Numbered from the whole stretch's first letter, positions 4,230 to 56,970 are shown. The stretch: DNA of 63,711 nucleotides, filler included, from Bigelowiella natans CCMP2755 (GCA_000320545.1; 8 parts of 8 records of this genome joined end to end with filler, not necessarily neighbours in it), one strand, 5' to 3'. A program made the numbers and translations. The notes: generated by a model from the letters alone, not told the origin.

Positions 4230-5720
4230 GGAGGAGAAGAAATGTATTCATCGCTCTCGCCGCTGGGCAGTCCATGCTAGCATGAAGGCGTGCCCACTGG
4301 AACTCAGCCATAGCACAGCATGCCTTCATTAGTTGCTAGCAGGAGCGTAGTCGCCGTGCAGCACGCGGTGCGTTACATTGGTGTGCGCGTGACGAGGCAC
4401 TCGCTGTGGCAGAGCAGAATGTATCAGCATGCATGCGGGGGTTCGCATACCTGGCTCTGGCCTATATACGCCTGCTGCACAAGCTGCATGCTTTAGTTTA
4501 TTAGTGATGCTGGCATGTGTGACGCATGTCATGCGATATTCAAACGAAACAGACTGGTAGCGTGGTGCTGCATGGCTAGCAGTAGATGGGACGCCGAGGC
4601 ATGCAGTCGCTCATTCGCCGGTGCACAATGACAATGACGACTGATCGACCCGCATGCGCGCGCAGCCGCAGCAAAGAACACTGAACAGCTCGCTGGCAAC
4701 AACGTACGTGAATCCCCAGGCTTCGTTGAAAGAGTTTGCACGCGCATGCATGCATGCACCGCCAAAACTGTGCCAAAAAAGAGCTTGCAAAAAAGCGCAC
4801 TCAACAAGCACTCATAATCGAGCGCTTATAATTGTCGAAATCGCTCATGTCCACTTTTCTACCGCCCCCCCCCCCCCCCACCACCCTCTAGCTATGCGCA
4901 CACAAACACACAAATAACTAGCGAACACCACGGAAAACACAGCTTCGCTTGCATGAAAGCGAAAAATTCTGGCACAGTTGTCATGTTTATTAATTTCATC
5001 TTGGTCAATTCTAGAAATGCACAAGAAAACGGGAAAGTTTGAAATGAAAAAACGTTGAGAGTTTAAGCGTTTTCAAAGTGCTTTTTTGAGTGTTTATTTT
5101 TTTAGTCTAGTAAGTGCTTTTTGGGCGCACTCAGCACTGGCTAGCTGGCTATACCAGGCTAGCAGAGTGCGCATGCGCTTTTTCAACGAATAAGCCCCAT
5201 CTATAGCCATGCATGTGCGCACTTCTAGACCTAGCTAGAGACGTTCTAGAGCACAATGTAATGAGCACGTGACGTTGTCATGACTTATTGACTTGCTAGC
5301 TTCACCATCTCTGTCGCGTACTACTGCAACAATGGACACACAATGTACTCTTTGGCTAAAGTGACGAGGCAGCTCTAGAGCTGTCGTCATCGCACATTGT
5401 GTTGCAACAGCAGACTCAGCATGCATGTGACTTAGCTTGCTGCTTGGCTCTGATCTAGCGTACGTCACTGCTAAATGGTATGACAAGAATGGTGGTCTTG
5501 CAAGCATTGGGGCCACGCAGAGTGCTAGAGTGTGGCAGGTGTCATGTGGGGCTTACATCAGATTTTTCGGCTCTTTGTGTATTTCAGGCTGCACCAACTG
5601 ACAAAATGCTGCCCTTATTACAGGCACGACGTACAGATCATGAATCTCGTATTGTTGCACTGAACGATGCTAATTGTATCTTGAGGCGAGTGGACGCGTT
5701 CACATGAACACAATGCACAA
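4230..5720. other. CTAG/CATG/TGCA micro-palindrome-rich intergenic patch (convergent region 1)
   Basis: Dense GCTAGC, TCTAGA, GCATGC, ATGCAT; lies between the IFT122 (+) stop and a minus-strand gene stop at 5759. Confidence 0.8.
4769..5130. mobile_element. Possible degenerate MITE (imperfect ~55-bp inverted arms)
   Basis: 4769-4828 (tgtgccaaaaaagagcttgcaaaaaagcgcactcaacaagcact) aligns by eye with the reverse complement of 5064-5130 (gtgcgcccaaaaagcactta[ctagac]taaaaaaataaacactcaaaaaagcact). No TSD identified. Confidence 0.4.
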
Positions 5721-5758
5721 TGTGCAAATTCTTATTGGCTTCACAAATGCAATGAGCC

Positions 5759-7201
5759 TTATTTAAATTGGCTACTTTTCTCAAGTATTCGCTCCGAGAC
5801 TGTGTCACTCAATCTACTCTTAGCACCATTCATTATCTTTAGGACCTCCTTCATTTGTGAAACACTCGTCCTCCCGTCATGCTCTCCCTGAAAAGTATCA
5901 GTTAGTCTGAGAATTATGGTTTACATCTGTGCTTGACAAACCTGTTTCGGTAACTTTTGTTGTGCAATAATTTGCTGTGCGTTACTCATTTTTGTTGTAG
6001 CTGTCATGGCCTACAACAGAATCGACATCTGTGATATCATGATAGATACGACGTAGATGCAATGGTGTGAAATACCTCGTGGTAATATCTCATTTGCATG
6101 ATATTCTGTTCTACTTCACGCTCTAGCTCCTCCATCATATTAGAGTGTTGATGCAAAAGTGGATCGACGTTCTGAAAACTGTGTGGTATTTTGAATTAGA
6201 CAACATATTGATTCAACACTAGTCGTCTACTAGTAGTGATTTGTACGTACTTCTGCATGAATTGTCCAGCCGAGACGATAGAGTTAGCCCACTTTTCCTC
6301 AAGTGCGCTGACTGCAGAACTCAAGTATGGGTCCTCACATTCTTCTTTTCTTGCACATGCCTTTACCCTCATGTCAGTTTCGTGCAGTACTTCCTTCCTG
6401 ATTACATTAGGCTATTCACAACTGCTACTCAGACCTCGTGGCAAAGAACTAAACATACATTTGATTTAAGTGCCTCTTCAACTCTGAAACATCCGGAGAA
6501 TTTGGTTTTTCATCGTTTCCTATCACTAAAATATCTGGAGGGAATATCCTGCAGCTGCAAGGAAATATCTGTGCATGTCTGGAAGCAACCTAACGAAAAG
6601 AGTCTGGTTTATATATTTGCAAAACTGCTCCCTCTACATAAATAGGTATTTACCTTCTCCCTTAACTTTGATTCACACATCCATGCGCTTACTGAACCAT
6701 TTTGTGTCGCCACGTTTTCTTGGTGTATTGTGAGGATATCGAGAAGACGGCAGAGATAATTGCGCGTTCGAACTACTTCGGATTTAGCCTACAAGTGTTG
6801 AGAATATGATTATTTTGAAACAAAGGCATATAGCGGCTGTCCACCTCAAGAATATCAAGAGCTTCTTCTCTTGAACAAAGTGCAAGGACCTCGATCAAAA
6901 TATCGACTCCAGAAAAATCAGACATACTTTCGTTAACCACATGTTTATAAAGCTCCTCGTCACATCTGACATAGAAAATAAACGCAGGTGTCAGAAATTA
7001 GTAACTGGCATTCAATTTTTTATTCGTTGTTCGGAAGGAGAATACAGTGAGCACGAGTTCCCTGTCCCCTTCGCATGGTTTTGCTAGAGTTGTAAATACT
7101 ACCTCTTTAGGGCCCACTGTAGTTTTCTCACTAGAGCTATTTTTTCCTATTAGCGTGGGTGATTTGAATATAACTTGATAGATAGACGACTGATGTTTCA
7201 T
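5759..7201 (-). CDS. Hypothetical helical/coiled-coil protein, multiple short introns
   Basis: Minus-strand exons between short GT-AG introns: MKHQSSIYQV.., AKSEVVRTRNYLCRLLDIL.., KEVLHETDMRVKAC..ALEEKWANSI.., FQNVDPLLHQHSNMMEELEREVEQN, ..SERILEKSSQFK* (TAA at 5759-5761). Start uncertain. Confidence 0.6.
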
Positions 7202-7337
7202 CTTACATGGGAAGTCGTCTGGCTGCTTTTCATTCGTTCCAAAGGGAGGAGGTCATCATCGCTGAGTAATACACACATTCGTAGCCTCAGTTAATACAAT
7301 GTAGAGACAATCATGCTTAAATCTGAGAAGCCATTTA

Positions 7338-7524
7338 AGTTTACAGTAAAGAGTTTTTCCTAATATTACTTCTTCTTCTACTACTACTGCTACTACTACT
7401 ACTACTACTGCTACTGTCTACCGATCACGGTGAGTTTACAGTAAAGAGTTTTTCCTAATATTACTTCTTCTTCTACTACTACTGCTATTACTGCTACTAC
7501 TACTGCTACTGTCTACCGATCACG
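7338..7524. repeat. Tandem duplication, 95-bp period, 2 copies, containing (CTA)n
   Basis: agtttacagtaaagagtttttcctaatattacttc...ctgtctaccgatcacg occurs at 7338 and 7433, between divergent genes. Confidence 0.9.
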
Positions 7525-7935
7525 ATGAAGGTAATCCTCCATGATAGAAGAATACGAAGTGGCTGTCTACTTGATGTCGCAAATACATAATCACCTTAAA
7601 ATGATGCTGTGAGACAACCTATAGCGTCAACAAATCCGAACACTGTCCCGCCAGAAATGGGCATTGCTTGAGAGACTCCAAGCAAGAATTCATAGAGTCC
7701 GACATATTCTTTTGATGTCGCTATGATTGAATCAAGGACATTTGCTTCTTTGTAAGTAATAACACCAGAGCACCAAAGCAGTAGCAGCACGTGTAATGAT
7801 AATGATAGCCACAACGAGGAATCGAGTGTAGATTCTATGAAATGTGTATCGATGCTTGCTCGAGCTAATTTTCAGATTATTAGTTTTTTCCTTCCCAATT
7901 AAATTATAAACTACTGGAACATCCGCATTTAGAAA

Positions 7936-9085
7936 ATGACGGACTGGCGGGCAACTTACGAGCAAAAGTGCAGAGAGCTTCAGGTACAGCATTGGGAATT
8001 AATTAACGTTGAATTTTAAGTTTACATTCCGGCAGGCTTTGAAAGAGGAACATGTCGAATACAAAAATTCTATGGAGCAGGTAGCTTCACGAGTAGAAAG
8101 ATTCTGCAGGAGAGTATGTGGGGGTGAAATGCAGTGCACGGGACACTGGTATTCTTGTTTTCTTTCAGGTTGATAAGCAATTAGAGTCACAATTAGATAT
8201 GGCCACAAAGAAGGTAAAAGATATCCGTGTGAGATATAGCCACCAGCTAACTATTTTGCGATGCACGAGAAGGCAGAAAGGCTCGAAAATAGACTGGAGG
8301 AACTGACTAGAAGAATTGATGCTGAGAAACAGAAAGTCGAGGTAGGTGGAAAAATCATTCCTGGATTAGATAACAATCACAAAAAAATGTTAAAGCCCCT
8401 TATTTTAGATGGAAAGTAAAGGGGAAGCTCAGCTCCGGCGAACCATTGAAAAACTAGAAGAGAAAGCCAGACTTCTACAATTTCAGCATGACAAGGTGGC
8501 TGGGTTCCCACAATTTGGCTAGTGTAGATTAAGTGAACTTCAACAAAGTGTGCATTCAGTCTAATGTAAAGGAAGAAAGTTCAAGAATTGGTTCAGCTAC
8601 AATTGTATGATTGTCTTTCCAGCCTGTTATGGTGATTGCTATAATATGTTCCAAAAATGCAAATAGCTCTTCGAGTCTAAAGTTGAACTGGATCTTGTCC
8701 GGACAAGAGTGGTAGCACATTTTCAATTGATCTGGTGGAGTGATGAGAAACTCTTTCTTAGGCGAAAGAGAATGAGGAGTTATCGGAGAAACTTAATGAT
8801 TGCGAGGAAGAAAATGTAAATTTTAAACATTTCATAAAGAAGATGTTGGCGGTTTATATCTTCTCCAAAATTTCTCAGGTTCTTTTGCAGCAAGATTTGG
8901 AATCTGTTCAGCAAAATAAATCAGAGAATGTGAAATAAAGTTAACTAGACGACATGCGTGCATTGTGATAAACTATTTGTCTTCAGGTCCAAAGGGTGAA
9001 AGATGAGCTTCGCGACGTGCAACATGAACTGTCTGCAATGCTAATGGACGTGAAGAGAACAAGAGCTCCAAATGACCCCTTTTAG
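7936..9085 (+). CDS. NudE/NDE1/NDEL1-like coiled-coil dynein regulator (short form)
   Basis: Exons MTDWRATYEQKCRELQ/ALKEEHVEYKNSMEQ/VDKQLESQLDMATKK/AERLENRLEEL../AKENEELSEKLNDCEEEN/VLLQQDLESVQQNKSEN/VQRVKDELRDVQHELSAM..PNDPF*. The last exon matches the NudE signature VQRLKDEARDLRQEL. Confidence 0.75.
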
Positions 9086-9199
9086 ACAGAAGTAGGACGG
9101 AGAATTCACGAAATAGGTTTCTGAGTGCTAGTAGCTACAAGAACAATGTCGTCGTCTTACAGGAGGCGGCAAGGCTAACGAGAACATGAAAAAATGAAC

Positions 9200-9601
9200 A
9201 ATGCATCGAGAACATTGCATAGCTCTAGAGCTAGGTAGCGCAACCGTGGCGATATGTCTTGCACAAACGTTTATTTAGTCATGCCTAGTCATCTAGTCAT
9301 CATCAGTAGCTCTAGAGCTCTAGAACTACTAGACTAGCTGAATCATCAGCACAATCGAGTGCGCATGCATTGAATGTGTGCGCCTCTACCAGACCTGTCA
9401 GCTGTCAGCACTAGCTAGCTAGCTCTAGAGCTAGTGTCTAAGTGCAGTCGATGCATGCGCGCGTGACTCTAGTAGGACAGTAGGACTATTCGTGCGGAGT
9501 CACCACATCTCACATGCTAGAATGTCCATCACCTCTAGACCTCTAGACCTAGTCATGCACTTAGCCAGCTACATGTAGCTAGACTAGTCTAGTAGTAGAT
9601 G

Positions 9602-9640
<39 letters not shown>

Positions 9641-10330
9641 GTGTGCATGCGCATGCGTCTTGCTAGCTAGCTAGCTCTAGAGCTTGCGATGCGCACGTCA
9701 GTCACACACCTACGTACCTAGAGCACGTGCGACAGCCAGTAGGGATTATTCCAGGAGTGCTGTAAATGGGTGTAAGCTTTACCCTCTGCTTGGCTACTGT
9801 AGCCCTGAAGCGCTAACATTTACACCCTCGCGTGAACAATTTTCTGCATTTTGCTTTGATCACTTTTGTTTGCTCGCACAACGCAGACCGCCCTGAGGCT
9901 CTAATAAGTACACACCCTCAAATCTCCGCTAGCGATAGAATAATCCCTGGCGACAGCACTAGCTACCTAGAGCGGTGTGCGCATCTGTGGCAGCTAGAAG
10001 CATGCAGATAACTAAAGAATGCCGCCACATACTCGGCTAGTCAGACGACATCACAAGCAGATCGACTGGATGATCAGTGAGAGTGGCACGTATCGTACTA
10101 CGAGCAAAATGTCTAGATGTGCAGGCTGCCTCTGTCAAAGCAGATCGAAAAGTGGCAAGTACAATGCATGATGCAACGTAAATAATGATCACTCAACACA
10201 TATGTAGCAATTGAACGTTCTTACATGCAGCTGCAGTCGCAGTAGCTACCTAGCTATGCATGGCATGGCTATGAATGTGCGTACGACGAGACGAATAGCA
10301 CACATAATAGTGCAACTCTGAATGGTTGAG
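9200..10330. other. CTAG/CATG micro-palindrome-rich intergenic patch (convergent region 2)
   Basis: About 26 CTAG by hand count in 9221-9722 (roughly 2 expected); runs such as ctagctagctagctctagagctag. Confidence 0.85.
9737..9949. mobile_element. hAT-type MITE, 213 bp, 8-bp TSD GCGACAGC
   Basis: GCGACAGC at 9729-9736 and 9950-9957. Termini CAG(TAG)GGATTATTC ... GAATAATCCCTG resemble the Ac-type YAGGGAT end. Subterminal ACACCCTC/GGGTGTA motifs recur. Confidence 0.85.
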
Positions 10331-10485
10331 TTAAGATTTTCTATCTAAAAATCATATCTTGGTCTAATATACGCTTGTGTGGCATAGAAGTGCGCATATG
10401 CATTTAGATTAGTGTTGAAAAATACTACCAAAACATTTGAAACTCTTATTTAGCTTTTGACAACATCAGTGCAAATAATTTCAAA

Positions 10486-11543
10486 TTAAATGCTACAAAT
10501 TCCTTTCTTCAAATAGTCTGTCCAACTTTTAAAGGATAGTGAAATAAATACTTGTGGTTTATCAACCAGACTGAAAGTATGTTGGTTCAAGATCTGCCTG
10601 AGTGGGGGGAAAGAATTAGTGTTAGAAAACCTTCTCCTAATAAAAAGTAGAACAATAGTGAAATTATAACCGGTAAGAAGATTCCATATCTTCCCTGCCA
10701 ATGCACAAAAAGAGGGCTATGACGATCTGAAGATAAATAAAATCTTATAGTCCTTGTTTAATTTAAATCATGTACAAATCTTCTACCAATAGACAGATGA
10801 CTACTTGAAGAAACAGCCACCTCCCATTGGAAACAACCGGATCCTGTAATCAATGAAAATGGGTCAAACTGTATCGCTCATTTATCAGAGATACCGACCT
10901 CCATTTTAGAGACTTCGTTAGAATTGCTTGAATTTTGCGTGTTTCGTATGACCATATAGGTGTTCTGTAGAGCAAGGCTAGCTGCAGCCTAGTCATACAG
11001 AATTGTGGTGATTCACTGAATTACTACAGTTGGTTGAAGTATGCAGCATCTACTTACTACGCGATGGGTGGTACCGTGGGAAAAGCTTCCAATATTGGGC
11101 TATCAGGCTGCTGCTGCTGTAGTTTATTGATAGGAGCAGGAGATTTCTTCTGCTCAAGTTCGCTGTATATTTGCTGGTATCAGAGTTTTATTTTGAAATA
11201 GAATTTTTGGAAAAAATGACCTCTTTTTAGTTGGGAATCTGACCCTTAGTCCTTTCTTTGCGGAAAGCGGCGTCCGTAAGACTGATTTTGCAACCTGTAA
11301 TATTACGCAGGAGGTGATATACCTATCAGGTTGATCAAACTGCTGGAATTCCAAATAAGTGATACGTACCTTTTGCGGAGCAGGGGTAGCCCTTGATCGT
11401 AATGGTAACACACTAGAAAGGGCAGCTGCTGCTGATGCTTTAGATGGGCTATCTCCTTTTACTGCACGACTTTTTGAAATATGATGATTCTCCTTCTCCT
11501 TGGCCATCAAGGAATATGAGCGTGTGACTCGTCGAGAGATCAT
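10486..11543 (-). CDS. Hypothetical basic, Ser/Pro-rich protein with short introns
   Basis: MISRRVTRSYSLMAKEKEN..PAPQK/VAKSVLRTPLSAKKGLRVRFP../RRFSNTNSFPPLRQILNQHTFSL/SWTDYLKKGICSI*; GT-AG introns; no family recognised. Confidence 0.55.
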
Positions 11544-12739: not shown

Positions 12740-13870
12740 ATGGACAGAATTTTGGGGAAAATCTATGGAATGTCCAAGATATTGATGATAAGAGATATCA
12801 TCGGACAATTATTTGAAAAAGGCCTATATTTATGTAGTATGACTGCAACAAGATCTTGTCGTACATCAGAATTATCTTCACGCCGCACCCCAGGCCCCCA
12901 ACCCACCGGGGCATCTACTGAGCTTTTTTTCGTCACCGAGAGCTCGAAAATGCCATACCATACCATTTTTCCAGATGCAGAACATTTTACAATGTTGGGC
13001 TTATGCATCTCCATGGGCGTATGTAAGTATCAACTGCGAAATTAAACTGGGAAAATGGTTAGACTTAATTCTTGCCAACACACAGATGGATGGATTCTAC
13101 TTACAGCTGCGGACATGATCGGGGATGGAGCCGAGTCGTTGCTCGAAGCGATGCCCCGACATGGAGCTTTGATTGGAGGTCTATTGGTTCCTATTTTGGG
13201 AGCGATACCAGATGGTATGATGATTCTACTATCCGGAATGGGTCATGGAACGAAGGATGAAATTCAGCGACAGTTGAACGTTGGAGTTGGAACTCTGGCC
13301 GGGTCTACGATTATGCTTCTGGTAAACACCAAGAATTTAATATGAAGTCTTGATTAATGAATGAGTGGTGTCTCGGTTATTTATTTACTCTTTCCGTGCT
13401 ATTTTAGACCGTTCCATTTGGAATCGCATTTTTTGTTAATCGCTTATTTACTACTACTTCCGCGCTATTTTAGACCGTTCCATTCGGAATTGCAATTTTT
13501 GTTAATCGCCGTCCTGTGGAAAATGGAAGAGCTGTAAATATGGAAGAAAAACCTAAGGAGGGTGGAGGCGAGATGTCGTTCACAGCCAATGCTAAAAGAT
13601 TCCAAAAATTTACGATGAGGTCTATTTTCACGCGTGAATACTGGAAAACCGAGGACAACAATGGCAACTTATTTCCCATCGGAGCGTCTGTGGAACAAAG
13701 TTTCCCTCTTTCAGCACGTATTATGATGGTAGTAATACTCATAACTATCTTAAATAATTTCCCATCGGAGCGTCTGTGGAACAAAGTTTCCCACCTTCAG
13801 CACGTATTATGATGGTAGTAATACTTCGTATCATCTTAAATTAACCGTGTATGCTTTTACTGTGTATTAT

Positions 13871-16288: not shown

Positions 16289-18438
16289 CAACCTGCTATC
16301 ACTTATTTCTACTACCACTAAGCAGTACTGTTGTCTCTAAAAAATTTAATTCTAATTTTTCTCCTTGTATATGTGTAGTGTATTTGGAAGGAATGGTACT
16401 TATCGATAAAGATCATTGTAAAGCGACGATGCACAAAGATTTCGGAGCTTCCTATCGTAACGTGAACAACAACAACAACAACAACCAAAAGACTGCTGCT
16501 GCTGCTGCTGCCTCAAGACAGCGCAAAACGACCACGACTTACCCAGCGGTTGGTTATGTTATCATTCAAGCAATAGCGCCATTTCAACAATATAACGGCG
16601 ATGATGATGATAATGATGATGATGATAATGATAATCACAACGACGAAGAACGCGATAACGGCTATGACCCCTAGAAAAACGATGTGATGTGGTGGTGATG
16701 GACATCCTATATATAATTGATATTGATGGCATGCATACGCCTTCACACCAGAATACTATCATCGTAACGGTATATTAGAAAGTGATGATACTGCTATTCC
16801 AATCCATCTAATAATGTAGAAATTGAGAATGTTGGTGGGGCATTCACGTATGAGAACAAACAAATGAAAAAAGAAAAGAGAGAAAACTGAGAAGAAGGAA
16901 TCGGACTATTCTGTATTGTTGTATCTTTCATTTCTCTTGTTCTAATCCCCTCCTGCAAACCACTATCAGGCATCATACCAAGCGGATGAAAGTTCTTCCT
17001 TAAAAAGCATGTTTGGTACTAAACATGGATACAATTCGCTTGAGGTAAGGATAATGATTTATTACATATTAACACCTTCCATTTTGTCTCTTTAACTATT
17101 GTATTTTTTCGAATGAAATGGAGAGGAGGCCAGCTGAACAACGATAGATAGCAATTACGTATATTTTTCCGTGCACTCGGGGAAAGACAATATTATGACG
17201 ACATCTAGCAAACATTACCGCTCGCTTTTCCTATTTTTCGGTTTAATGGACTTTTTAGCACGTTATAGTTATTTTAATATTGCATTTGTGATTGCTAATT
17301 TAAGATATTATTCCTCAAGTTCGTCCTTCTCCTGTGTTCTAACCTGCTGCTGTTACTTGCTGCTGCACCGATTAGGAGGGAAATATTGCTGTTGAATTGC
17401 CAGAAAAAAAGAGTCATGATGAGCAGGAGGCTGGCGAAAACAACAAAGATGAACATTCGATTAAGGGTCCATTGCTCTGGATGCTTTGGGGCTCTATTCT
17501 GGTCGCAGTATTCTCCGATCCAATGGTAGTAGTTAGTGTAAGTAATATCATTTCTTCTACTACCAGATAAACTGGAAATGTTTATTCTCCCTGGCATTGT
17601 AGCAGTAGTATCACACATATAGTGTGAATCTGTCATCATAATCTTTTAATCATCCTGTTTCGTAGGTGGATATGATTGATGAATTCTCTAATCGAGTGCA
17701 AATCAACGCGTTCTACGTCTCTTTCATCGTGACTCCTTTGGTACAATATTTTCACATCTAAAATATCAAACCTTTCGATTTTCATCATTCAAAAATGTCA
17801 AATATACTTGATGATGGTGGGAGAATGACGATGATTATGATGATGATGATGATGATGATGATGATGGTTTGATCCAGGTTTCCAACGCGTCTGAAGTTCT
17901 CTGTGCGGCGAAATTAGCATCGAAACTCACCGACAAAACGTTGAACTGTAATACAATTATAATAGTATAGTTGAGTAGCCATATTATTAAAGATTGATTT
18001 TCAATTATAAGTCCCATCATTTATCTTCTGTTGTTAGTTGCACTTTCGACTTTGTATGGAGCTGCGGTGATGAATAGCACGTTCTGCATGGTAAGAAACT
18101 ACAATGCTGAATGTTGCACAAATTTTGCAACTTGTCGCTGATTGCGTGAGTTTTCCAGGCTATTTTTGCTGGTTTAGTGTATTTCCGAGGGCTTGAATGG
18201 AATTACTCAGCTGAAGTGCTCATCATAATCATAGTGAGTGCAACGTGTACCTAATTTTTCATCTCTATCCATTGATTTAATCGTGTTTCCTCTCAAGGTA
18301 ATGTACGTCATTGGGGGTCTTGGATTGTCAGCACCGAATCAAACTTTTTCCATCACTGCAGCTGGAATTGCTCTTTCCATGTTCCCTTTTTCGTTGGTTT
18401 TCGTTTTTGTTTGCCAAAACGTAATTGGCATGGCATGA
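12740..18438 (+). CDS. NCL/EFCAX-type Na+/Ca2+ exchanger-like protein with EF-hands (CaCA superfamily)
   Basis: alpha-1 region GWILLTAADMIGDGAESLLE..LIGGLLVPILGAIPDGMMILLSGM..QLNVGVGTLAGSTIMLLTVP; EF-hand DLDNNDIIDLTEF; alpha-2 region GSILVAVFSDPM/VDMIDEFS..FYVSFIVTPL/VSNASEV..LSTLYGAAVMNSTFCM/AIFAGLVYFRGLEWNYSAEV. Start codon uncertain (12250-12950). Confidence 0.92.
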
Positions 18439-18505
18439 TGTCAAAATCCCAAAGTTGATGCGACACCGAACATTCTATACATTCCTCGTGTGATTGAAAC
18501 GATTA

Positions 18506-19311
18506 GTTCAACATTCAACATGAAAGAGTCAGTCAGCAACACAAAATGCAAACGAAAACGAATCATGTCAAAGCTGTGCAACTTGTTTGTCAAATTGCAG
18601 TCATTGCGACAACGACACAAAGTTTTCACATGCAATTTTTGGTTGCCACAACAGCGGGTGCATCTGACCAAATGCATGCATGACAACAAGGCAAATGAAA
18701 TCATGACAAAGCATGATTTCCGAGTATGCGGAGTGCGGACCATCTCTTGTAGATCGAAAGTGTTGCTGAATTTGCGCATTGCGCGTGAAATTTTACATTG
18801 TGGAAGTAAAAACAACATGACCATCATCATCCACATGTTCCGAATCGGGAAGCTTCATTTTGTTGCCCACTGCCTGCTTGCAAAAGCTCGCGATAGCGCA
18901 GGAGCTGCATCGCATGCACCCGGCGTCCCAGGTGCGAGCAAACGATCTCTTTGTTGCTTGCATTTTATTTTCAAACGAATGACCTTTGCAAATGCACAAC
19001 AATGAGCTCAAATGAAAATTTGTGCAAATCATGGACAAAAGCAATTGCTTCCATGTCCAACGAGTTGGATCTGCGTGCATCACTGTGATTGCAGCTCGTG
19101 CATGATGCACATTCCCAACACCAATGCTCAACTTGTTCAAACATCAAAATGCACACATGATCGAGCCAATGCAAGTTCACAACACAACATGTGCTTTGCA
19201 CAGGGAGGAGCTGTCGCGTCAAACGCCAACAACAAACCCAGGTCATCCAAACCAACACCAGTGGTCAGAATCAGTGCTCCACATCCAGGCCTCACCGGTC
19301 ACAACTTCACA
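18506..19311. other. Subtelomeric TpA-depleted domain
   Basis: Only 6 TpA in ~806 bp by hand count and none in 18968-19311; CpG still common. Confidence 0.9.
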
Positions 19312-19496
19312 TAGGTTGGGATGAGAGGATTGGGACAAGAGGGTTGGGATGAGAGGGTTGGGATGAGAGGGTTTTGAAGAGAGGGTTAGGATGAGAGGGT
19401 CATGATGAGAGGGTTGGGATGAGAGGGTTGGGATGAGAGGGTTGGGATGAGAGGATTGGAATGAGAGGTTTGGGATGAGAGGGTTTGGATGAGAGG
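19312..19496 (+). repeat. Telomere-associated ~14-bp tandem repeat (GATGAGAGGGTTGG)n, ~13 copies
   Basis: Degenerate copies directly abut the TTAGGG array. Confidence 0.9.
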
Positions 19497-19548
19497 TTAG
19501 GGTTAGGGTTAGGGTTAGGGTTAGGGTTAGGGTTAGGGTTAGGGTTAG
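19497..19548 (+). repeat. Telomeric (TTAGGG)n array, chromosome end
   Basis: 8+ perfect TTAGGG units run to the contig end with the G-strand oriented outward. Confidence 0.92.
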
Positions 19549-19549
19549 A

Positions 19550-25803: not shown

Positions 25804-25845
25804 GATGACGACGGGAACGTAGAATAGCAATGGGATGCCGCTCGC

Positions 25846-25886
<41 letters not shown>

Positions 25887-26203
25887 TACGCGTAATCAAC
25901 TTTTTCGAACCACTCTTAGCCGCCTCCTTCTTCCTCTTCCTAATGATCTACATATCTATCTATCACCACACAGGGTCGGTTTGATACTCCTCCTCCTCCT
26001 CCTCCTCCTCCTCCTACCACTCCTACTACTACTACTACATTACTACTACTACTACTATTACTACCATGAGTGATAGCCATGGCCCAGAGAACGAGGAAGA
26101 TGATATCAAACCGACCCTGTGTGGTGATAGATAGATATGTAGATCATTAGGAAGAGGAAGAAGGAGGCGGCTAAGAGTGGTTCGAAAAAGTTGATTACGC
26201 GTA

Positions 26204-26244
<41 letters not shown>

Positions 26245-26284
26245 GCGAGCGGCATCCATTGCTATTCAGTTCCCCGTCGTCATC
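25804..26284. repeat. ~180-bp inverted duplication at contig start (probable fold-back artefact)
   Basis: 25804-25986 is the reverse complement of 26104-26284; mismatches are confined to the contig-terminal ~30 nt. Confidence 0.9.
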
Positions 26285-42800: not shown

Positions 42801-43567
42801 ATCGAAATGGCCCTCCATCCTTTCGAGGAGCATATTTTCTCTTGGAACGAGGACGGACGGCTTCGCGCGAAAAGACCCTAAAAAAAATAAAGAAGACCAG
42901 GGAAGAGAAACGGTATCTGTATCGGTTGTTCGTGGGGGACTCGACGGCCAGATACCCCATGCAGAAGGCATGTAGAAGGCGGGAAATCTCGATTGCAGTT
43001 TTAGGCCCTTTACATTGCGTGGTTTTGCATCTTGCGACATCTGAATATGCGTGGATAGGTCTTATTTGGGTTGGTTTTACCGCGTAGAGCCACCCCCCCC
43101 CCATTCCTATTTTTGAACGACCAGCATTTCCGCAAAAACGAGTTGCATTTTCGACCATAACCAACGAGAGGGCACGGTGGATTAAACTCGAATGTACGGC
43201 ATCTCTTGTATATTTTCTTACGACCTGCAACCCAAGAGTTTGGCTCATGGGAAAGGTGCAATTTGCTTGAAAGTATGGGGAAATAATAATGCGACATGTC
43301 CTTAAATTGTATCTGATTCAGAATTTGCACTTTTTCGCATAAACATGGTTCTTATTTAGATCTGAATCTCGTGTTGTGGAGGTTCCTCTCTCCTCACTCT
43401 CTTGACTGAGAACTACCCGCTCACTTTCTATCCGGTTGTGCCTCTCCCATCACAAAAAATTTCCAACCACCGGACGAAGCGTATACAATCCCTGTGACCC
43501 AAGTACAAGGATCAAGTTCAAAGCTTTGTTGGCTGCAGTGAAGTGTTGCTTTCACGAACTAAGAAAT

Positions 43568-43963
43568 ATGCCCCTTAAAAGATCGAAGAGCTCGAGAAAC
43601 GTCAGTCTTAGCTGTTTGTTCAAAGATCAAGAACAACCACAGAGCTTTGCACCAAGGAAGCGAAATTCCTTGAGCAGAGATGAAAATAACAACAATCTAT
43701 CACAGACCTCATCAATCGAGAGTTTTGGCGGGGAGCAGCTCGAAAGCAAAAATCCTAAACCTGTTCCGAGTGTGAGACTGCTTAAGAGAGCGCGGCGGCA
43801 GCGATGCGAAGAGGAGGATGATAAATTTTACAAGTGTGCCGGCTGCAAGCAGCGTAGACTTACGTCTGGTTTTTTCATGTACCTCGATCGTTGCTTTTGC
43901 TCGGAGGGATGCCGTAACGAGGCTATCACAATGGACGAAATACAGTTTCTTCAGCTTACATAA
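43568..43963 (+). CDS. FCS-like zinc finger (FLZ/DUF581) protein, intronless
   Basis: Disordered N-terminus followed by FYKCAGCKQRRLTSGFFMYLDRCFCSEGCRNEAITMDE, i.e. CxxC..MY...FCSxxCR...I.MDE. Confidence 0.8.
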   Translation: MPLKRSKSSRNVSLSCLFKDQEQPQSFAPRKRNSLSRDENNNNLSQTSSIESFGGEQLESKNPKPVPSVRLLKRARRQRCEEEDDKFYKCAGCKQRRLTSGFFMYLDRCFCSEGCRNEAITMDEIQFLQLT

Positions 43964-44639: not shown

Positions 44640-45229
44640 TGATGCTGGTGTCTGTCCAGCTCCGATCCTGCACGCTTACAAAGTATGGTACTTGCTCCGT
44701 GCAACTTCGTACATGCTGAAGGAATAATGAAGCAACTCGCAAGGCTCGCTTCGTGCATACTGACTTGCTGGCGTACCGCGCGCTACCATATATAGCTGTT
44801 CTGTATCTAGGTATCTAGATGTGGCCATCGCAATAACGTTAATTGCACATGGCGCATTTAGATTATAAGATATGCAGTGCATATTTGCATCGTATGCGAT
44901 GTATGTGTGCAGCATGTCTAGCTACTAGCTGTAGCAGATGTGTGGAATAAACGAGAAGAAACTTGCCTGTCATCGAATACTGTGCGATGCGTACACGCAT
45001 GCCTAGCTAGCTAGATCTAGAGATGCCATGCTAGTACATATGAGTGGTATGTGTACTTCTATATACTACTGGCCATATTTATTACACTGCATGCACACGC
45101 GCGCTAGCGCGTGCTACGCGCTTACGTATATGTGTAGGCGCTGGCATGCATGCTCCAATCAGTTGTCAACTTTACGTATATGTGTAGGCGCTGGCATGCA
45201 TGCTCCAATCAGTTGTCAACTTTATAGGC
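44640..45229. other. CTAG/CATG micro-palindrome-rich intergenic patch (convergent region 4), with 51-bp tandem duplication at 45122-45224
   Basis: tatctaggtatctagat, gcatgcctagctagctagatctagagatgccatgctag, cacgcgcgctagcgcgtg. Confidence 0.8.
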
Positions 45230-46520
45230 CTAATCCTTAATCATTATGCGTCGTGCCTGATGCATCGCACCATGCCTCTTCAGGTGCGAATTTTGAGTGA
45301 AAGCTTCGGGGCAGCTCTGGCATTTGAAGGGCCGCTCTCCACTATGAATCAACCGATGCCGATTTAAGTGCCCAACTCGGCTGAAACTGGAACTGCCGTT
45401 ATCATAGAAAAAGGATTTACATTCTAAGCACAGCAGTAGCATCACCATGCACCTTCCTATCGAATGTCAAGTTATGTACGGAGGAAATCAAGACGACTGT
45501 TTACATCATTTTTGGGACCGACTTGCATATGTCGCACGAGTATGGTCGGAGAACATTATGAACGGCATCCACGTGGTCTTGAAGCACGCGCTGAAATGAT
45601 GGCGAAGAATAGGTTGAAGAAGAGGAGACAGAAGAGGCTCACACTCTTATATGGCAAACATAAAACGGTCAACCGCAACCTTCGTGCAATATAGCTTCGA
45701 GCACTTCATACAGTAAAATCTTAAGCAAAGTTGGCTGCGAAGTCGATGTAAACAGATTAAGTAGATCAAAGTCAGATAAAAGGTCACATGTTTTTTCTCC
45801 TTTATGTGTCTTCTCTCTCACTCCCTCCGTCTCTCTCTCTCTCACCAGAGTTGTGGCAAGACACCGCCGGTCAACGAGATGTACGTCCTGATTCTGCAGC
45901 GACGAAAAGATTGCTCATTGAATTACGACGCCTTGCTTCGATGTGGCGTGGGATATAATACTTCCCGTGTTAGTAACTTTACCTTGTTGAAGATGATCCA
46001 AGTGAAAACTTGCACTTCCGACACAGCGAACTGAGATCCCTTTTTTTAATGGGTGAATTTCAATGTCAATGACTTATCGCCTCGGGGAATTATTACTAAG
46101 CTCACCCGTGCTTTCTCTCGTGAAGGATTCGTTTCCTCCTAAAAGGTTTGCTTTAGTCAGTAACACAATTCAACTCAAGCAATTTGTACGGGTTGCTGCA
46201 GCCCCTCTCTTCCCCTCCTTTTCTTGCTCTCTAATCCAGACTCTGTGCGTTTCTTCAATTGTGACATTTCAATGCTTTAAGTTGAATATCCACGCTCCAC
46301 TAAAAGCACAGTTACTATTCCTACACTTACGTTGTTGGGAGAACTCTAGAGCAGACCCCACACACCGATCTGTTGATGGATGGCTTGGATCCTGGAGGCT
46401 GTCTTCCTACAGCAACCTTGGCGTTGCTATCAAGAACAGTGACAGCATGCTGCCCTCCCCACCCTCCAGAGGTCCCCAGACAAACATTCATTGCCAGGAT
46501 GAAGGCGCTTGACATCAACG
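45230..46520 (-). CDS. C2H2 zinc-finger protein (at least 4 fingers); start uncertain
   Basis: Spliced CGVCSRVLPTT/RKRILHERKH, FYCMKCSKLYCTK/RVLQDHVDAVHNVLRPYSCDIC/SSFSRVGHLNRHRLIHSGERPFKCQSCPEAFTQNSHLKRHGAMH; HSGERPF linker. Confidence 0.85.
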
Positions 46521-48022: not shown

Positions 48023-48094
48023 TGTTGGGGTTGAGCGGAGAGTAAGCTTCGAGGACCATGCCGTTGGAGACCACATCAGGCGCTGAGAGTGGGT

Positions 48095-48136
<42 letters not shown>

Positions 48137-48347
48137 GGAGAAGTGGCTAAGTATCATGCACCTCGAATATGACATTATCATCCATCATCATCATCATCAT
48201 CATCATCATAAATATTTATTAGTCGTACTCCCATCACCGCCAACCTCACTTCTACTATTTTCATGCTCCAAAGCTCTCTGCTTCAAAGCACCTGCAAGTC
48301 GTCTCTTCCTCCCTCCCTTTCTTCTTCTTCTTCTTCTTCTTCTTCCC

Positions 48348-48398
<51 letters not shown>

Positions 48399-49813: not shown

Positions 49814-49847
<34 letters not shown>

Positions 49848-50258
49848 AACGACGACGATGGTGGTGGAGGTGGGGATGAGGATGGTGATGACGGATCTTC
49901 TTCCTCCGCGAGTGTATGCACGCCCCCTCCTTGCACCGAACCTCTTCCTGTTATAAACGGGCTGTTTTGATGTGGTTTCTTCTGTTCTGATATCGATGTA
50001 GAAGAATGATTTGAAGATGCTGTCGCCGCTACTTCCTTGTCAACTATGTTGTTGTTTTGCTTGTACTGCGCGACGCAAGTCCAGCCTACAGGATCTTCGC
50101 TCGGAGCTCCGTGCAGCAGCTCCAGGTCTAATAATTGCAAAACAACGATTTGATGTAATTGGTGATGGCGTTGTGACTGACTTTCTTGTGTTGAAAGCAT
50201 GGAAGGTGAAAGTTTGAATACATTTATTCATTCATAATATTTTATATACATATATATT

Positions 50259-50324
<66 letters not shown>

Positions 50325-50756
50325 GTAGATTTGCAACATGGAGCTCCCAGGTTCACATATCTGAATCACATATGGTCTTCCACACAGCGACTGGAGAGAA
50401 GCATGCCGCATACGACGAAATCATCATTGTCTTGAGATGTTCTTTCCCTCCTCCTTCTCCTTCTATTCTTAAGTAAAGCGATTCATCTACCTTCCGATAA
50501 GTGGCAGGTGCCCCCGAGCACATATACGGCATTCTTCTCCATATCAATGCCACTAATGGATAGTAATCATGAGTATGAGAAGGAAAGGCAATCATCACAT
50601 TAGATGTCGTTGATGATCGTAAGCTGTAACGGCTACATGTTGCAAAGCATTTCATCCATCCCCCTGCTATCTATGCACGTGCTTTTGTTCTCAGCTACCA
50701 CAGCCAAGAGGCTGAATGGTGGTGGTGTTTAGTCGATGGATGGTTGGAGCAACTTA

Positions 50757-50790
<34 letters not shown>

Positions 50791-52157
50791 CTAGTGTTGC
50801 ATATTGCTTGTGCTGTGACAACAGTAGTAGAAGCCCCAACATCCTTACTCCTTTCCCCTTTTGCTTTCCCTTTATGATGTTTTTTCTTCTTCTTTCTATT
50901 CTTCTTATTTTTCTTCTTGTGATGATGGTGTTTTCCCTCCTCCTCCTTCTTCTTCTTCTTCTTCTTCTTCTTCTCCTTCTTTTTCTTCCTCTTTTCCGTA
51001 TTCCCCTCCTTCTCCTCCCCCTTCTCCTCCACCTCCCCCTCCTCCTTCACAGCCAATATCTTCACTGCGTGTTCGGGGTCAGCACCATAAACCATTTCTT
51101 GGGTCTCGTGGACTAGTGGGAGCAGCCGATAGTTTGCGTCTTACGTATTGTCCAAATTAGCATATTATTATTACGATACATCCAAATTAGCATATGATTA
51201 TTACGATACAACAATAAGATTGCTTCGTGCATGGGAACGCAGACATATATATTTGGCACCACCTAGCTAAAGGTAAACCGTTTCAAAGAAACGGGAAGGA
51301 AAAAAGGAGGGTGTGGGAAAGGAGGAGGAGGAGGAGGAGGAGGAGGAGGAGGAGGAGGAGCACGGAAATTATTACTCTTTTTCCGGGCACAGACCCCATG
51401 AGCAACCTAACGAGTGACGACGAAGACGACGACGATTATGATTCTTACAATGTCAGTTGTTGTAGCACTTAGATGACGACGCCTCACTGTAAAACCGTAA
51501 TCGCATATCTGACATATACCTCCTGAGCAGGGCAGCTGAAGGAAGTTTCCGAGAAATTTCCCGCCAATGTTCCGTGCTCCTATGTCGTTCATACATGTGT
51601 GCGTGCATATGTGCGGGCTGACGGGGATGTCGGCGGTCGCAAGCCGTGCTTCGCTACTGCTGCAGCAGATGTGATGGTGATGATGATGATGATGATGATG
51701 ATGAGCAGCACTAAAATAGACCACAACCACAGATACAATTCCTCACATTAATAACAAAAAATGTTCTGCGAAGTGCTATCTGATACGCCAAAGATCCCTT
51801 CATCACAAGATTTTGGAGTAAGTTGCTGTGTTATTTCCTCTTACTGGTTTTCTACTGCTATTGCCGCTGCTACTACTTACTACTACTCCTACTACTACTA
51901 CTACTACTACTACCATTGATTTCTCGCCATCCCGTGCACATCCCCCACTGAGGACTAAAAGGTCTTCGGGGCATCTGAACAACGGGGTTGTCATGATCTT
52001 GATGATGATGATTATGATAATGATGACGATAAGGAGCACGATAAATACAGCAACTATGACTATTACTTTTCTCATAATCATGGGGATAACAATTAGGCTG
52101 TTCCTCAACGACAACAACAATTTATCGAGCAGGTATGTAAAACAAACCCATACATAT

Positions 52158-52226
<69 letters not shown>

Positions 52227-52320
52227 TTATTATCCCCGGCTAATCTTTTCAGCCTCACTGGAAGTTGTTTGGAGCCCCGACTCCTTCGTTGTTTCCCTTT
52301 TCCATATTCGAGAAGTGGAA
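48023..52320 (-). CDS. Large hypothetical (probably extracellular) protein with Cys-bracketed internal repeats; truncated by contig ends
   Basis: Repeating pattern: LKCRKKGLTHANVIF..LPKRC..DLNIG/TERGGDDVISHGIVAKAY and LTCMRQGNTTVAVML..VVKVCGG..GFSVATS../APDVVSNGMVLEAY. Confidence 0.5.
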
Positions 52321-52541
52321 GCTAGGAGAGAGGCCGATCTGCTCTGGTGCACAAACCGCAACTACCGAACCTTCAGGATTACAACAACGTGGATCGTTAT
52401 TATTCACAATATTCAAATCTTGTCATCAAAATTGAAACTAGNNNNNNNNNNNNNNNNNNNNNNNNNNNNNNNNNNNNNNNNNNNNTTAATTAATTAANNN
52501 NNNNNNNNNNNNNNNNNNNNNNNNNNNNNNNNNNNNNNNNN

Positions 52542-53029
52542 TGCAATAAAATGGGGCTGGTGTCCCGCTACTGGCACGACTCCCGGTAGTATCAGCCTGC
52601 GCGCGGCGACGATTTGGAATTTGTTTTGGCTCAAATATCCGCTCGCTATCGCTGTCGTGCTTGAAGCTTGCACATTCGAATTAGTCTATTTTTTGGTCGA
52701 GGGGACATCTTATTCGGGAATTCGCTGTTTCGTCAAATATGAATATGCCTATTGTTAATTCGGCACATCGAGAGGAGGGGGGGGGGGGGGAGGAGGGGGC
52801 TGGGAATGCGCTTTAAACTGATGTCCTTCGATCATTTGATGCCGTTGATGATGTTATTTCAAGAAAACATGAATATGCATGTGCGTACGGAGCAAAATAG
52901 ATACACACATGATGCGTATTGTTTTTAAAAAAATTAGATGTGAAATTTGCATATTATATTTGATTCTGATTTGTTTAAAGGCCTTTTCCCAACATTACAC
53001 CCCATTCACTTCGACTCTCCCCCCCTCTC

Positions 53030-53080
<51 letters not shown>

Positions 53081-53297
53081 GTGTTCTTTCCTTTAGTTGG
53101 GTACTCCTATCCCCACGCCTAAGCAGAGCGACATAGATGAGGATGATGACATTGCTGGGGGGGGAGGAGAGGAGGAGGCCGACAATAGTGACGCACACGT
53201 CAAAACCAAAAACAGCAGCGACCACAAGAATATAAGCAAGAGGAAAGAAACGAAATTCGAGTAATACACAAACACACAAACACAAAAACACACTTAT

Positions 53298-53338
<41 letters not shown>

Positions 53339-53885
53339 TCATTCATACCTAACTGCCCCCCTCCCCTTTGAAATGCTACACAAACAAAAGCTACACAATC
53401 GATCTCACTGCCGCTGGAGGAGACAAAGAAGGCCAGGGTAGTAGTGTAATCGGCCACAGCAGTAGCTCAGAGGGCAAGAGGACAAATCAAAGCGATCGAA
53501 GTAGAAGCTCCTTGCAGCCTCCCTCCTCGTCCATCCTCCCTGAAAACGTGCAAGGTCTCGAGGAGGAGGGGGAAGAGAAGAAAAACGACAATAAAAAGCA
53601 GCAAAATAGCTGCAATAGCTGCAGGTTAAGCGCGGACTCCATCGAGCAATACTGTTCTATCGACTTGAATAGGTAGGCGGGTGTGGGGGGGGGAGTTAGG
53701 AGAGTGGTAAAATGCAGTAGCAGCAGTAGTAGTAGTAGTAGCAGTGGCAGTAGTAGTATTAGGAGGAGGAGGAGGAGGAGGAGGTGGGGGGGGGGGAAGG
53801 AACATGGTGCAGGTGAAAGAGGAAGGGGATTTGAATATAGAGAAGGTAGCGGTGATAAATTTGGGAAATCGATACGAAATCAAAC

Positions 53886-53957
<72 letters not shown>

Positions 53958-54722
53958 GTATTATATATATCATATTCTCTTTTATGGCGGCCATCACCGT
54001 TATTGGTCGAGCGCTTCTCACCATTAAGAGACCCCGTGGATTGCATCAGCGCTTTCCTTTACACCCTCCCTCTCTTGACCTCTTTCCACCTTTGCTCCTT
54101 CCCCCCTTCTCCCCACCCTCCCGATAGATGTGCACATCTGCTGAAGGAGCTCCAAGGCATGCTGGATGATAGCAAAAAGGGGCGCAGAGGGAAGGGGGGG
54201 AAGGGAGGAGAGATGATGACGGCATCAACGAATAACGTAAGTAACAACGCGCAGTAGCAAGTAAACATACACGTCTGCACCCTATGCTTCCGTACTTTCG
54301 CAATATAGCAGACTATACGCGACTGAAGGACATTCGGTTTGCGGGGGGGGGGGGGACACAACGTTGGTCTTGGAATTCTCTTGGGGGTGACATCGATCCA
54401 TCCTTGACGCCATTAGAGCGATTTTTATCATTAACATGATCGTTGCAGCACCTTTCTAAATCCTTCCTCGCCTCATTTTATGACCGCGCATGCTGTTTCC
54501 TTCCCCCCCCCCCCTTCCTTCCTTCCCTTTTCGGTAGAGGCATGTTGTGTTTTGCCACAACGACTTGCTCTGTGGCAATATCCTCAAAGCACCGGGAAAC
54601 GAATCGGTGAGTCAAGCCGTCTCTTCTCCTGTCAGAACTCGAAAGCCAATGTACATGTATCCGAGAAACTAATTTAGGACGTATGGAGAGCGTGTGTTGA
54701 ACAATAAAAGTAAAATTATATA

Positions 54723-54765
<43 letters not shown>

Positions 54766-55185
54766 GTGTGTGTGTGTGTGTGTGTGTGTGTACGTATGAA
54801 TAATAGGTGAAGTTAATCGACTTTGAGTATGGAGGACTGGGGTGAGTTCGCTGCATCTTCGAATTCCTCCGACAGTTTTTGTTACAAGGAGATCGGGAGG
54901 GGGTTAGGAGAAGGCATTTTGGAGGTTAGGCAGTGCTCAGGTAATTTCCCTGTTTGTTGTTGTTGTTGTTGTTGTTTTTGTTGTTGTTCTTCAGTTATAG
55001 AGGTTTTGACATTGCCAATCACTTCAACGAATGGGCAGGAGGCACCTTGACGGTGAAGATGAAAGAAATGATAGCGACGATGATGATGATGGTTGGTGAA
55101 TAAGTCGATGGAGGGTCAGTAGGAACTTTTCTGCATAAAATTGCTACTGTTGTCACTTTCTCAGTGTTCTTCCTCCGTATCTCTC

Positions 55186-55233
<48 letters not shown>

Positions 55234-55848
55234 TTTGTGTGGGGGGGAGGGGATTCGTGCTTTCAGGCAGAGGAAGATGCTCCTGGATACAATGGGGTAA
55301 GTTAATACACACATGATGTCTGACGATATGCCCTTCCTGGAAGCTAGGGAGAGGATTCGTCAGCAAACCGTTTCGATCAGAAAAGGCTTTGCATTGCTCC
55401 AGGCCTTCGTTTCCTTAGTTTTTTGGTGTTACATTCCTCCCGCCTATCTTTCCTCTGCGTCATGCTGTCAATGCCCATGTCTTCGTTCGCGTTGCCACCA
55501 TTCGTTTCTCCCCGTGCAGGTTCCCGACTACTCGCACTTCCCAACCGATCGGTCGGCGTTTTGTTAAGTCAGATTCAGCGCGCAGCCCCTGCGCAAAGCT
55601 GCGTGTCGTCAGTTTGTGCATGCTCGGGTCCTGGAAGTTTGTGCCATTGGTTTGCCATTATTCTTCGATGAATGCGGATAGTGCGTACACGTCGTGCATC
55701 ACCCACCTGAAACGCACGTCTTTTCAGGCAGCAGCGCTCGTTTTGCGCTGCGTATTTGACAGAATTCAACGGCGGAATCGCCCCGAGTGCCGTGCAGCTG
55801 GAGAACCTGCTGAGTGAGGTTGTCTCTTGAAGGAAAAAAGCAGAGCTG

Positions 55849-55886
<38 letters not shown>

Positions 55887-56317
55887 GCAAATGATGTCGT
55901 GTTATGCTGTGGCAAACCGTTTCTCACCTCAAATTGATAGCTTACACATTTTTTATACAAAAGCGTGTTGCATCTCTGCAAGTTAAGCAGCGATTGAGGT
56001 TTGCTGTGTGGTTTGTGTGTGTGCTGCAGGTCGGACGTTTCGTGTCTCTGAACCATCTATACTGGGTAGGGAAGACTTTATTGCTGTGCATGTTGCTGCT
56101 TCTCCCGTTGTCTAGATGCGATGGTGATGGATGCTGCACGATGTAGTTCTCTTCGCCGTTTGTATGCCATCATTTCACTGAAGAGAATCTCGGATTTGAT
56201 CAGGGTACATGGGCTATTAATCGCGCGTTTGAGGAGGGTTGTGACGAGTTTGATTACATGCGCTACGCCACCATTCGTATCATGCGCGGGCTGTTAGGGG
56301 ATACTGAAGCAATGTAG
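52542..56317 (+). CDS. Choline/ethanolamine kinase, 5' part uncertain or truncated
   Basis: HVVFCHNDLLCGNIL (Brenner motif), VKLIDFEYGGLG/YRGFDIANHFNEWAG, VPDYSHFPT/QQRSFCAAYL, HLYW/GTWAI..FDYMRYATIR..*. Confidence 0.93.
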
Positions 56318-56329
56318 AAGTGTACATGT

Positions 56330-56970
56330 GCGAATCACGTGGCCTGCGGCGACGTAGCCAAGCACACACATGTAGACATGGGAGTCCACGTTATTTGTTT
56401 TATTTTCACAGCATGGTTGCTGATTTCGTGCAGCTGCATCGTACATGGTGAGTTGCTATGAATAACGAGGGGGTTGATTGTTTTGCACAGCATTGTTACG
56501 CCGTCTAGATGTGTGTGTGAGTGTGTGTGTGTGTGTTCGCCGAACAACAAATCTGGCAAACTCCAATGAATCCAAAAATGAACCATTCGAGTATTGCCTA
56601 GATCTAGAGATTGGAGCTTGCGTCACGACTGAGCTAGATAGAGTAATTCTCGGTAGCAAGCCTCACTACTAAAGTTGTATGTCTATAGATCTAGAGATCT
56701 AGAGGTGTCGCGACATCTAATCAAACCTAGAAACACATAGAACGTCAAATTTTGGGCTCGAGCCAGTTGCATGGTCATTCTAGCATTGCATGCATGATGG
56801 TTGAACGCTCTAGACCTGTGAATGCCTCTGTCTAGCTGTGTCTTTAAATCTAACACGCGCTGACTTCTCTAGTTCTGATGAATCCACTAGTCTAGCCAAT
56901 ACTAGAATATGCGACACCGATCTCACAAGCTAGATCACTGCTGATGCTATCATGCCTGCATGCAAAGTCA
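56330..56970. other. CTAG/CATG micro-palindrome-rich intergenic patch (convergent region 5)
   Basis: cctagatctagag, gagctagatagag, tctatagatctagagatctagagg, cactagtctagcc between kinase (+) and FKBP (-) 3' ends. Confidence 0.8.

Follow-up and report, generated by a model that had tools for sequence, protein, structure and literature searches.

Palindromic CTAG and CATG patches past the 3'-ends of genes in a window of the Bigelowiella natans genome

The window and its tail-to-tail gaps

We analysed a window of 63,711 nucleotides (nt) from Bigelowiella natans CCMP2755, made of eight contigs joined by spacers, and focused on five patches rich in the short palindromes CTAG and CATG, one in each of its five tail-to-tail gaps, that is, gaps in which the 3'-ends of two genes face each other. 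The patches are spread over four independent contigs, as a preliminary description of this DNA had stated and the contig layout bears out, and they are the following:

P1, 4230-5720: between IFT122 (plus strand, stop at 3993) and a HAUS/NMP1-like gene (minus strand). Its left half is CATG-rich, and a CTAG cluster of 11 sites lies at 5107-5528.
P2, 9200-10330: between a coiled-coil gene (plus strand; NudE was the label of the preliminary description) and a gene of no assigned family (minus strand). It has CTAG clusters at 9225-9721 (26 sites) and 9929-10116 (6 sites).
P3, 35420-35900: between a METTL21-like gene (plus strand, stop at about 35126) and a minus-strand gene, first labelled GT10-like. 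It is dominated by CATG (27 per kb).
P4, 44640-45229: between a zf-FLZ-like gene (plus strand, stop at 43963) and a C2H2 gene (minus strand, stop at 45230). Its CTAG cluster, 44918-45107, has 8 sites.
P5, 56330-56970: between a choline/ethanolamine kinase gene (plus strand, stop at 56317) and an FKBP gene (minus strand). Its CTAG cluster, 56598-56933, has 14 sites.

The last 166 residues of IFT122 are 99.4% identical to a protein labelled Bigelowiella natans, and by sequence the host is this species or a conspecific strain. The genes have GT-AG introns filled with microsatellites. Adjacent genes nearly always switch strand: of the 12 pairs, 5 are tail-to-tail, 6 are head-to-head and only one is tandem, some of these orientations being read from reading frames alone. 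The whole sample consists of 13 gaps of this one window.

The tail-to-tail orientation of P1, P2 and P5 was backed by RNA reads from one stranded, 3'-weighted run, of which around 6% was read (344 and 243 reads placed on the window); marine metatranscriptome runs of small share served for intron positions only. Plus-strand reads peaked at 3901-4550, 8451-9750 and 18201-18850, and minus-strand reads at 5201-5850 and 9751-11050. Pfam matches placed IFT122 and the choline kinase on the plus strand and FKBP on the minus strand. In the region of P5 (56442-57091) reads came from both strands at a depth of about 2, which suggests that the choline kinase and FKBP genes have overlapping 3' untranslated regions (UTRs). 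According to these low-depth reads, whose ends form no pile-ups, the CTAG clusters fall within or beside 3' UTRs. P3 and P4 were oriented from the sequence. For P4 we relied on Pfam, namely zf-FLZ on the plus strand (E 3e-4, below the cut-off) and C2H2 on the minus strand. The zf-FLZ family is known mainly from plants, and the finger gene seen here (43406-43963) has a single exon. For P3 the orientation comes from METTL21-type motifs recognised by eye (Pfam E 0.017), splice-site counts and seven homologues of the minus-strand exon, which a full-library search returned after an earlier search with the 48-residue exon had given none. For the head-to-head gaps at 21.0, 30.9, 42.8 and 46.6 kb, the partner genes were in part recognised by their reading frames alone, with ambiguous splice-site counts in three cases.

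CTAG and CATG in the different types of gaps

Compared with the rest of the window, the five patches hold 79 CTAG where 7.1 would be expected, and 72 CATG where 16.9 would be expected. Against 500 dinucleotide shuffles per patch, the CTAG excess gave p = 0.002 in four patches and 0.036 in P3, and the CATG excess p = 0.002-0.054. The gap types were compared over whole stop-to-stop and start-to-start gaps, which avoids hand-chosen edges. CTAG occurred at 4.5-26.9 per kb in the 5 tail-to-tail gaps and at 0-4.6 in the 6 head-to-head gaps (Mann-Whitney p = 0.007), and CATG at 9.2-16.9 and 0-7.9 per kb respectively (p = 0.002). An orientation-blind scan of the window found 7 clusters of at least 4 CTAG, of which 5 lay in four tail-to-tail gaps, 2 at 60.2-61.0 kb and none in the six head-to-head gaps.

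The counts, the shuffles and the whole-gap comparison thus agree with the preliminary description, which had placed CTAG/CATG patches in these five tail-to-tail regions. It had named all five as CTAG/CATG patches and had seen no such dense patches in head-to-head regions. The former needs correcting for P3, which is a CATG patch whose largest CTAG cluster has two sites; the latter holds for CTAG clusters but not for CATG, which reached 7-8 per kb, about twice the background, in three of the six head-to-head gaps. CTAG, not CATG, is the clean discriminator between the gap types.

Summed across the 12 gene ends of the window, with overlapping tail-to-tail windows, CTAG numbers 1-4 in each 200-nt bin ahead of the stop and climbs to 13-39 beyond it, and around 13 gene starts it stays flat at 4-7 per bin. 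A CATG-rich zone adjoins all 12 gene ends, and 11 of them border a gap with raised CTAG. The CTAG sites showed no 10-bp spacing of the nucleosome type, the spacing peaks being at 4, 6, 8, 10 and 14. No strand-specific RNA motif was seen either, the flanks being roughly symmetric, although overlapping windows make this a weak test.

A tandem gap and a lone gene end near the telomere

Two further places of the window bear on the orientation rule, and their features are the following:

61062-62132, minus strand: spliced gene with three CT..AC introns and minus-strand reads at 60667-61316; its stop was read from the sequence.
60170-61030: TpA-stripped, single-copy block of the tandem gap, with CTAG clusters at 60230-60250 and 60879-61014.
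59750-60165, plus strand by RNA reads that possibly come from other copies: high-copy repeat ending in three TTCATTG units.
18450-19300: CATG/TGCA-rich, TpA-poor and CTAG-free stretch past the 3'-end of the Na/Ca exchanger gene.

Because the spliced minus-strand gene occupies 61.06-62.1 kb, the gap between it and FKBP is tandem (minus, minus). The introns and the minus-strand reads put the 3'-end of this gene at about 61.0 kb, and the CTAG cluster 60879-61014 lies under its 3' reads. The block at 59.7-61 kb, which had been proposed as a possible head-to-head exception, is therefore no such thing: it is tandem and has a real CTAG patch at a 3'-end. The Na/Ca exchanger gene has no facing partner. 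The stretch past its end runs into multi-copy subtelomeric DNA and then into the TTAGGG telomere; this subtelomere (18750-19549) includes a 14-nt tandem repeat ahead of the telomere.

Since the tandem gap also has a patch, the patches seem to track 3'-ends rather than convergence alone. The link of the patches to gene orientation, as first described, stands within the window as a link to gene ends; strict convergence is doubtful, given the tandem patch and the CATG stretch at a lone 3'-end. The pattern looks like a 3'-end rule. For CTAG a convergence rule is still a possible reading, as the plus-strand repeat faces the tandem patch and the lone end is without CTAG.

TpA hypermutation and the survival of CTAG

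According to a preprint on B. natans (10.64898/2026.01.13.699255), viruses integrated in its genome undergo TpA->TpG/CpA hypermutation, and the genome has 124 TpA-poor clusters, with thresholds of 0.43 or less for rho TpA and 1.52 or more for rho CpA+TpG; an adenosine deaminase is put forward as the mutator. A term search of its main text gave no instance of CTAG, flanking, context or trinucleotide, nor any analysis by gene orientation; its supplementary table, with 231 new mutations, could bear on these points. In our window, rho TpA was 0.14 at 18450-19300, 0.04 at 59750-60165 and 0.23 at 60170-61030, with rho CA+TG of 1.79, 1.63 and 1.60 respectively. The TpA-poor blocks at 18.45-19.3 and 59.75-61.0 kb, one of which includes a high-copy repeat, meet or approach those thresholds and match the reported scar. 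Copies differ from one another as TA/TG at 18794-5, CA/TG at 18997-8 and CA/TA at 60016-7; the two subtelomeric variants fit what is expected from TpA decay resolved in two ways. At 60016, T, making TA, accounts for two thirds of the depth, and the copy of the window has CA.

Unlike these blocks, the five patches are not TpA-poor. Their rho TpA was 0.72-1.41, with 66 TpA per kb against 68 in the background, and P4 shows no TpA loss. CpG amounts to 49 per kb in the patches and 41 in the background, so CpG decay was discarded as the source of CATG. The CTAG excess, around 16.6 per kb, compares with a background of 6 per kb for CCAG, CTGG and CCGG together, the one- and two-step precursors. Deamination of the CHG or CCWG type was discarded as the sole source of CTAG, because there are too few precursors and no rise in one-sided TAG contexts (0.29 vs 0.33). 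CCGG is low in the patches (0.2 vs 1.3 per kb), yet this means one site where about six would be expected. As TpA and CpG are undepleted and the CTAG excess exceeds the supply of precursors, a point-mutation scar, which the preliminary description had suggested as the origin of the patches, cannot explain these five.

The stripped block of the tandem gap shows a different pattern. Within 60170-61030, 11 of the 13 surviving TpA sit in CTAG, at around eight separate places. TA was kept in 11 of 20 C..G contexts, 2 of 46 one-sided contexts and none of 114 others (11/20 vs 2/160, Fisher p = 1e-10). In the stripped repeat and subtelomere it was kept in none of 9 C..G contexts, where an immune CTAG at background frequency should have left about 2; the difference from the block gave p = 0.005. 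Either the mutator skips C-TA-G, or selection keeps CTAG near gene ends, and one block alone bears on this choice.

Copy number and the transposon question

Pairwise alignment of the patches showed nothing shared beyond 30 nt, and contigs of single-copy depth span P1 (3501-7357), P5 and 60140-61172. P2 is covered by two single-copy-depth contigs, with a low-copy insert inside. This insert is a low-copy repeat at about 9680-9900, where a variant at 9833 has a depth of 642 of 765, single-copy depth being around 120. Given the lack of mutual alignment and the essentially single-copy depth, we discarded the idea that the patches are copies of one transposable element family. Ten open reading frames of the patches had no Pfam match, and nothing in the window matched Rfam. 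A terminal-repeat check gave only short arms of the same palindromic words, on either side of the 60.2-61.0 kb core and of the centre of P1. A single 12-nt palindrome, also present at 4273, makes up most of the 15-nt arms at 60226 and 61004.

The repeat at 59750-60165 is another matter. Its mean depth was 41,495 against 97, meaning hundreds of copies and around 1000 at the peak. It had no Pfam match and is likely the 3'-end of a retroelement. We also noticed intergenic and intron segments of about 50-95 nt that were recently duplicated in tandem, almost without differences (7345-7532, about 13670-13830 and about 45125-45222), and, where one contig begins, an inverted repeat with perfect arms of 154 nt (25833-25986 and 26104-26257), which may be an assembly fold-back.

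Origin of the patches

The structure of the patches was examined in the five of them together with 60170-61030, after long TG/CA runs had been collapsed, against shuffles preserving 4-mers. We found 21 palindromes of at least 12 nt where shuffles gave 4.2, and 32 8-mers recurring within 30 nt where shuffles gave 7.9; none of 100 shuffles reached either number. CTAG pairs at most 20 nt apart had 46 even and 15 odd spacings (19 and 14 in shuffles). Long palindromes and short direct repeats in such surplus point to local duplication. We tentatively favour, at slightly less than an even chance, that the patches are palindrome-rich simple sequence past gene 3'-ends, grown by local slippage and fold-back copying. 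Repeated copying of self-complementary words of 4-12 bases would build the patches, and tail-to-tail gaps would likely be the densest since two 3'-ends meet there. Such words may persist at 3'-ends and be purged from coding, intron and start-proximal DNA, as a palindrome with ATG or TAG cannot hide on one strand. Beside a repeat or telomere, TpA->CpA/TpG hypermutation was likely overlaid, adding CA/TG words.

Several points weigh against this explanation. The window holds just one tandem gap and one lone 3'-end; the tandem patch may be convergent in transcription, with the plus-strand repeat opposite, and the lone end is without CTAG. The CTAG survival at 60.2-61.0 kb is not predicted by a neutral model. 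The introns, which are weakly constrained too, carry TA, TAG and GAT microsatellites, with TAG runs on the sense strand too, yet no CTAG/CATG tandems, which weakens the purging argument. Finally, other eukaryote contigs (see below) run against a general 3'-end rule, with clusters in 2 of 18 tail-to-tail gaps, although gap length confounds this comparison.

The patches might instead be selected 3'-end signals, either CTAG-centred sites for a protein or inverted repeats that exclude nucleosomes, ending transcription or insulating facing genes. The clusters lie within or beside read-covered 3' regions, a low-depth placement that would be compatible with a terminator function, and different patches have 12-mers in common, of which one recurs 5 times over 2 regions, another 3 times over 2 regions and a third 4 times over 3 regions. 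The CTAG kept in the stripped block also speaks for selection, and the inverted repeats that yeast has beside its poly(A) sites are reported to lower nucleosome occupancy (PMC6420913). However, there is no shared fold among the two of five patches that were folded (z = -3.1 for P2, a better fold than in shuffles, and 0.0 for P5) and no Rfam match, the well-covered 3'-end of the Na/Ca exchanger gene is free of CTAG and P3 is without a cluster. Moreover, the overlap of reads from both strands within P5 means no clean stop of transcription, and other eukaryotes have the same words mostly upstream of genes. We regard such signals as a rather doubtful, though serious, candidate. A related reading takes CTAG as a protected word: a bound protein or a base modification would mark gene ends, shield them from the TpA hypermutator and act as a terminator or boundary, so that neither this mutator, directed at foreign DNA, nor silent chromatin could spread into genes, with an independent recruitment to the promoter side in other algae. 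This we consider improbable.

It is likewise improbable, in our opinion, that a DNA mark at convergent termination zones, either similar to hydroxymethyluracil (hmU) or base J or guided by small RNAs, left a scar that produced the patches. The regional TpA mutator of B. natans, the stripped DNA at the subtelomere, where trypanosomes also have base J, and the opposite-strand reads overlapping at P5 are in its favour. In addition, rho CA+TG was 1.40-1.58 in all five patches and 0.95-1.13 in head-to-head gaps, and the share of TA in TA+CA+TG outside C/G flanks was 0.19 against 0.30 in genes (p = 1e-9). However, absolute TpA is not lowered, P4 has a TA share of 0.35, and CpG is undepleted. Furthermore, the most enriched word is CTAG, which itself contains TpA and exceeds its precursors, and neither long palindromes nor direct repeats are made by point mutation. 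Our literature search found no relevant paper on base J, hmU or the J-binding protein (JBP) in Bigelowiella. It is very unlikely that the patches are what is left of one or more old, decayed transposons that accumulated in promoter-free gaps. Repeats are indeed present in these gaps (about 9.8 kb and 59.75-60.16 kb) and short inverted arms flank the 60.2-61.0 kb core and the centre of P1, but the arms at 60226 and 61004 are largely the one palindrome mentioned above, and the missing alignment, the single-copy depth and the open reading frames without Pfam match all speak against it.

An exemption of CTAG from TpA hypermutation, or selection keeping it, would if true be a direct clue to the mutator enzyme, and CTAG survival is a cheap and decisive test of this newly reported mutator. 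Were selection to act on CTAG, this word would be a candidate for a boundary or 3'-end element of a rhizarian, of which we found no description in the literature.

Comparison with other genomes and known systems

A search of metagenome contigs with a 20-mer of P2 gave 28 loci, none of them B. natans, as they had neither the microsatellites of its genome nor homology to the window. Of these, 12 had two or more oriented genes and were kept; the other 16 were redundant, too short or without two such genes. One of the 28 (L018) comes from a Mamiellophyceae-like green alga, with 85% identity to Mamiellaceae sp. RCC2288. Motif and repeat scans for further DNA of B. natans gave nothing in viral contigs and nothing in prokaryote genomes. 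Among 42 gaps of these motif-picked loci, clusters of at least 4 CTAG were present in 2 of the 18 tail-to-tail gaps, but in 8 of the 12 that are head-to-head and 9 of the 12 that are tandem (p = 1e-4). Tail-to-tail gaps are short there, and the CTAG density per kb is equal (8.2-8.4), a value driven by one gap. The CTAG word pattern thus recurs across eukaryotes, untied to convergence, and as the identical 20-mer is found in CTAG patches of unrelated eukaryote contigs, it arises repeatedly. These patches, as in L017 and L018, share with ours the same words and a discrete, non-coding layout. They differ in lying mostly upstream of starts, in being poor in CATG and in lacking the excess of CA/TG (rho 0.96); one group also has a second palindrome absent from the window. 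Dense CTAG patches together with a 12-nt palindrome that recurs and is centred on TTCGAA were seen, mostly upstream of gene starts, in L017, L018, L020, L025, L012 and L015, and in three eukaryote contigs (L001:891-1086, L008:3989-4075 and L011:10001-10041) the word pattern stands directly upstream of start codons.

We found no description of such patches, in B. natans or in the other contigs, in searches for Bigelowiella CTAG, CTAG/CATG palindromes and termination, most subscription papers being outside their scope, and no literature on CTAGCTAG in algal intergenic DNA. As to a link with viral methyltransferases, the motifs given for virus DNA in the consulted part of the ChlorV paper (PMC13196603) are TGCA, RGCY and CANNNNNNTG, with neither CTAG nor CATG among them. 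In B. natans, one H3K9me3/H3K27me3 state has been reported on transposons and repressed genes (10.1101/2025.03.17.643675).

Regarding kinetoplastids, where base J is reported to mark termination sites and telomeres, the likeness consists in the location at termination zones and in a T-linked anomaly beside a telomere. However, J is a modified base located between polycistronic units, whereas the genes of the window are single and spliced. The closest known kind are the inverted-repeat clusters of 3' flanks in Saccharomyces cerevisiae (PMC2908449, PMC6420913), where short inverted repeats also gather past stops, their density rising from divergent through tandem to convergent gaps (PMC2908449). 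The reported yeast repeats near poly(A) sites are rich in ApT/TpA or A/T tracts, whereas B. natans has CTAG, CATG, TGCA and AGCT at around 47% GC. Clusters of palindromes at gene ends are already known from yeast, and what is new in B. natans is the different vocabulary.

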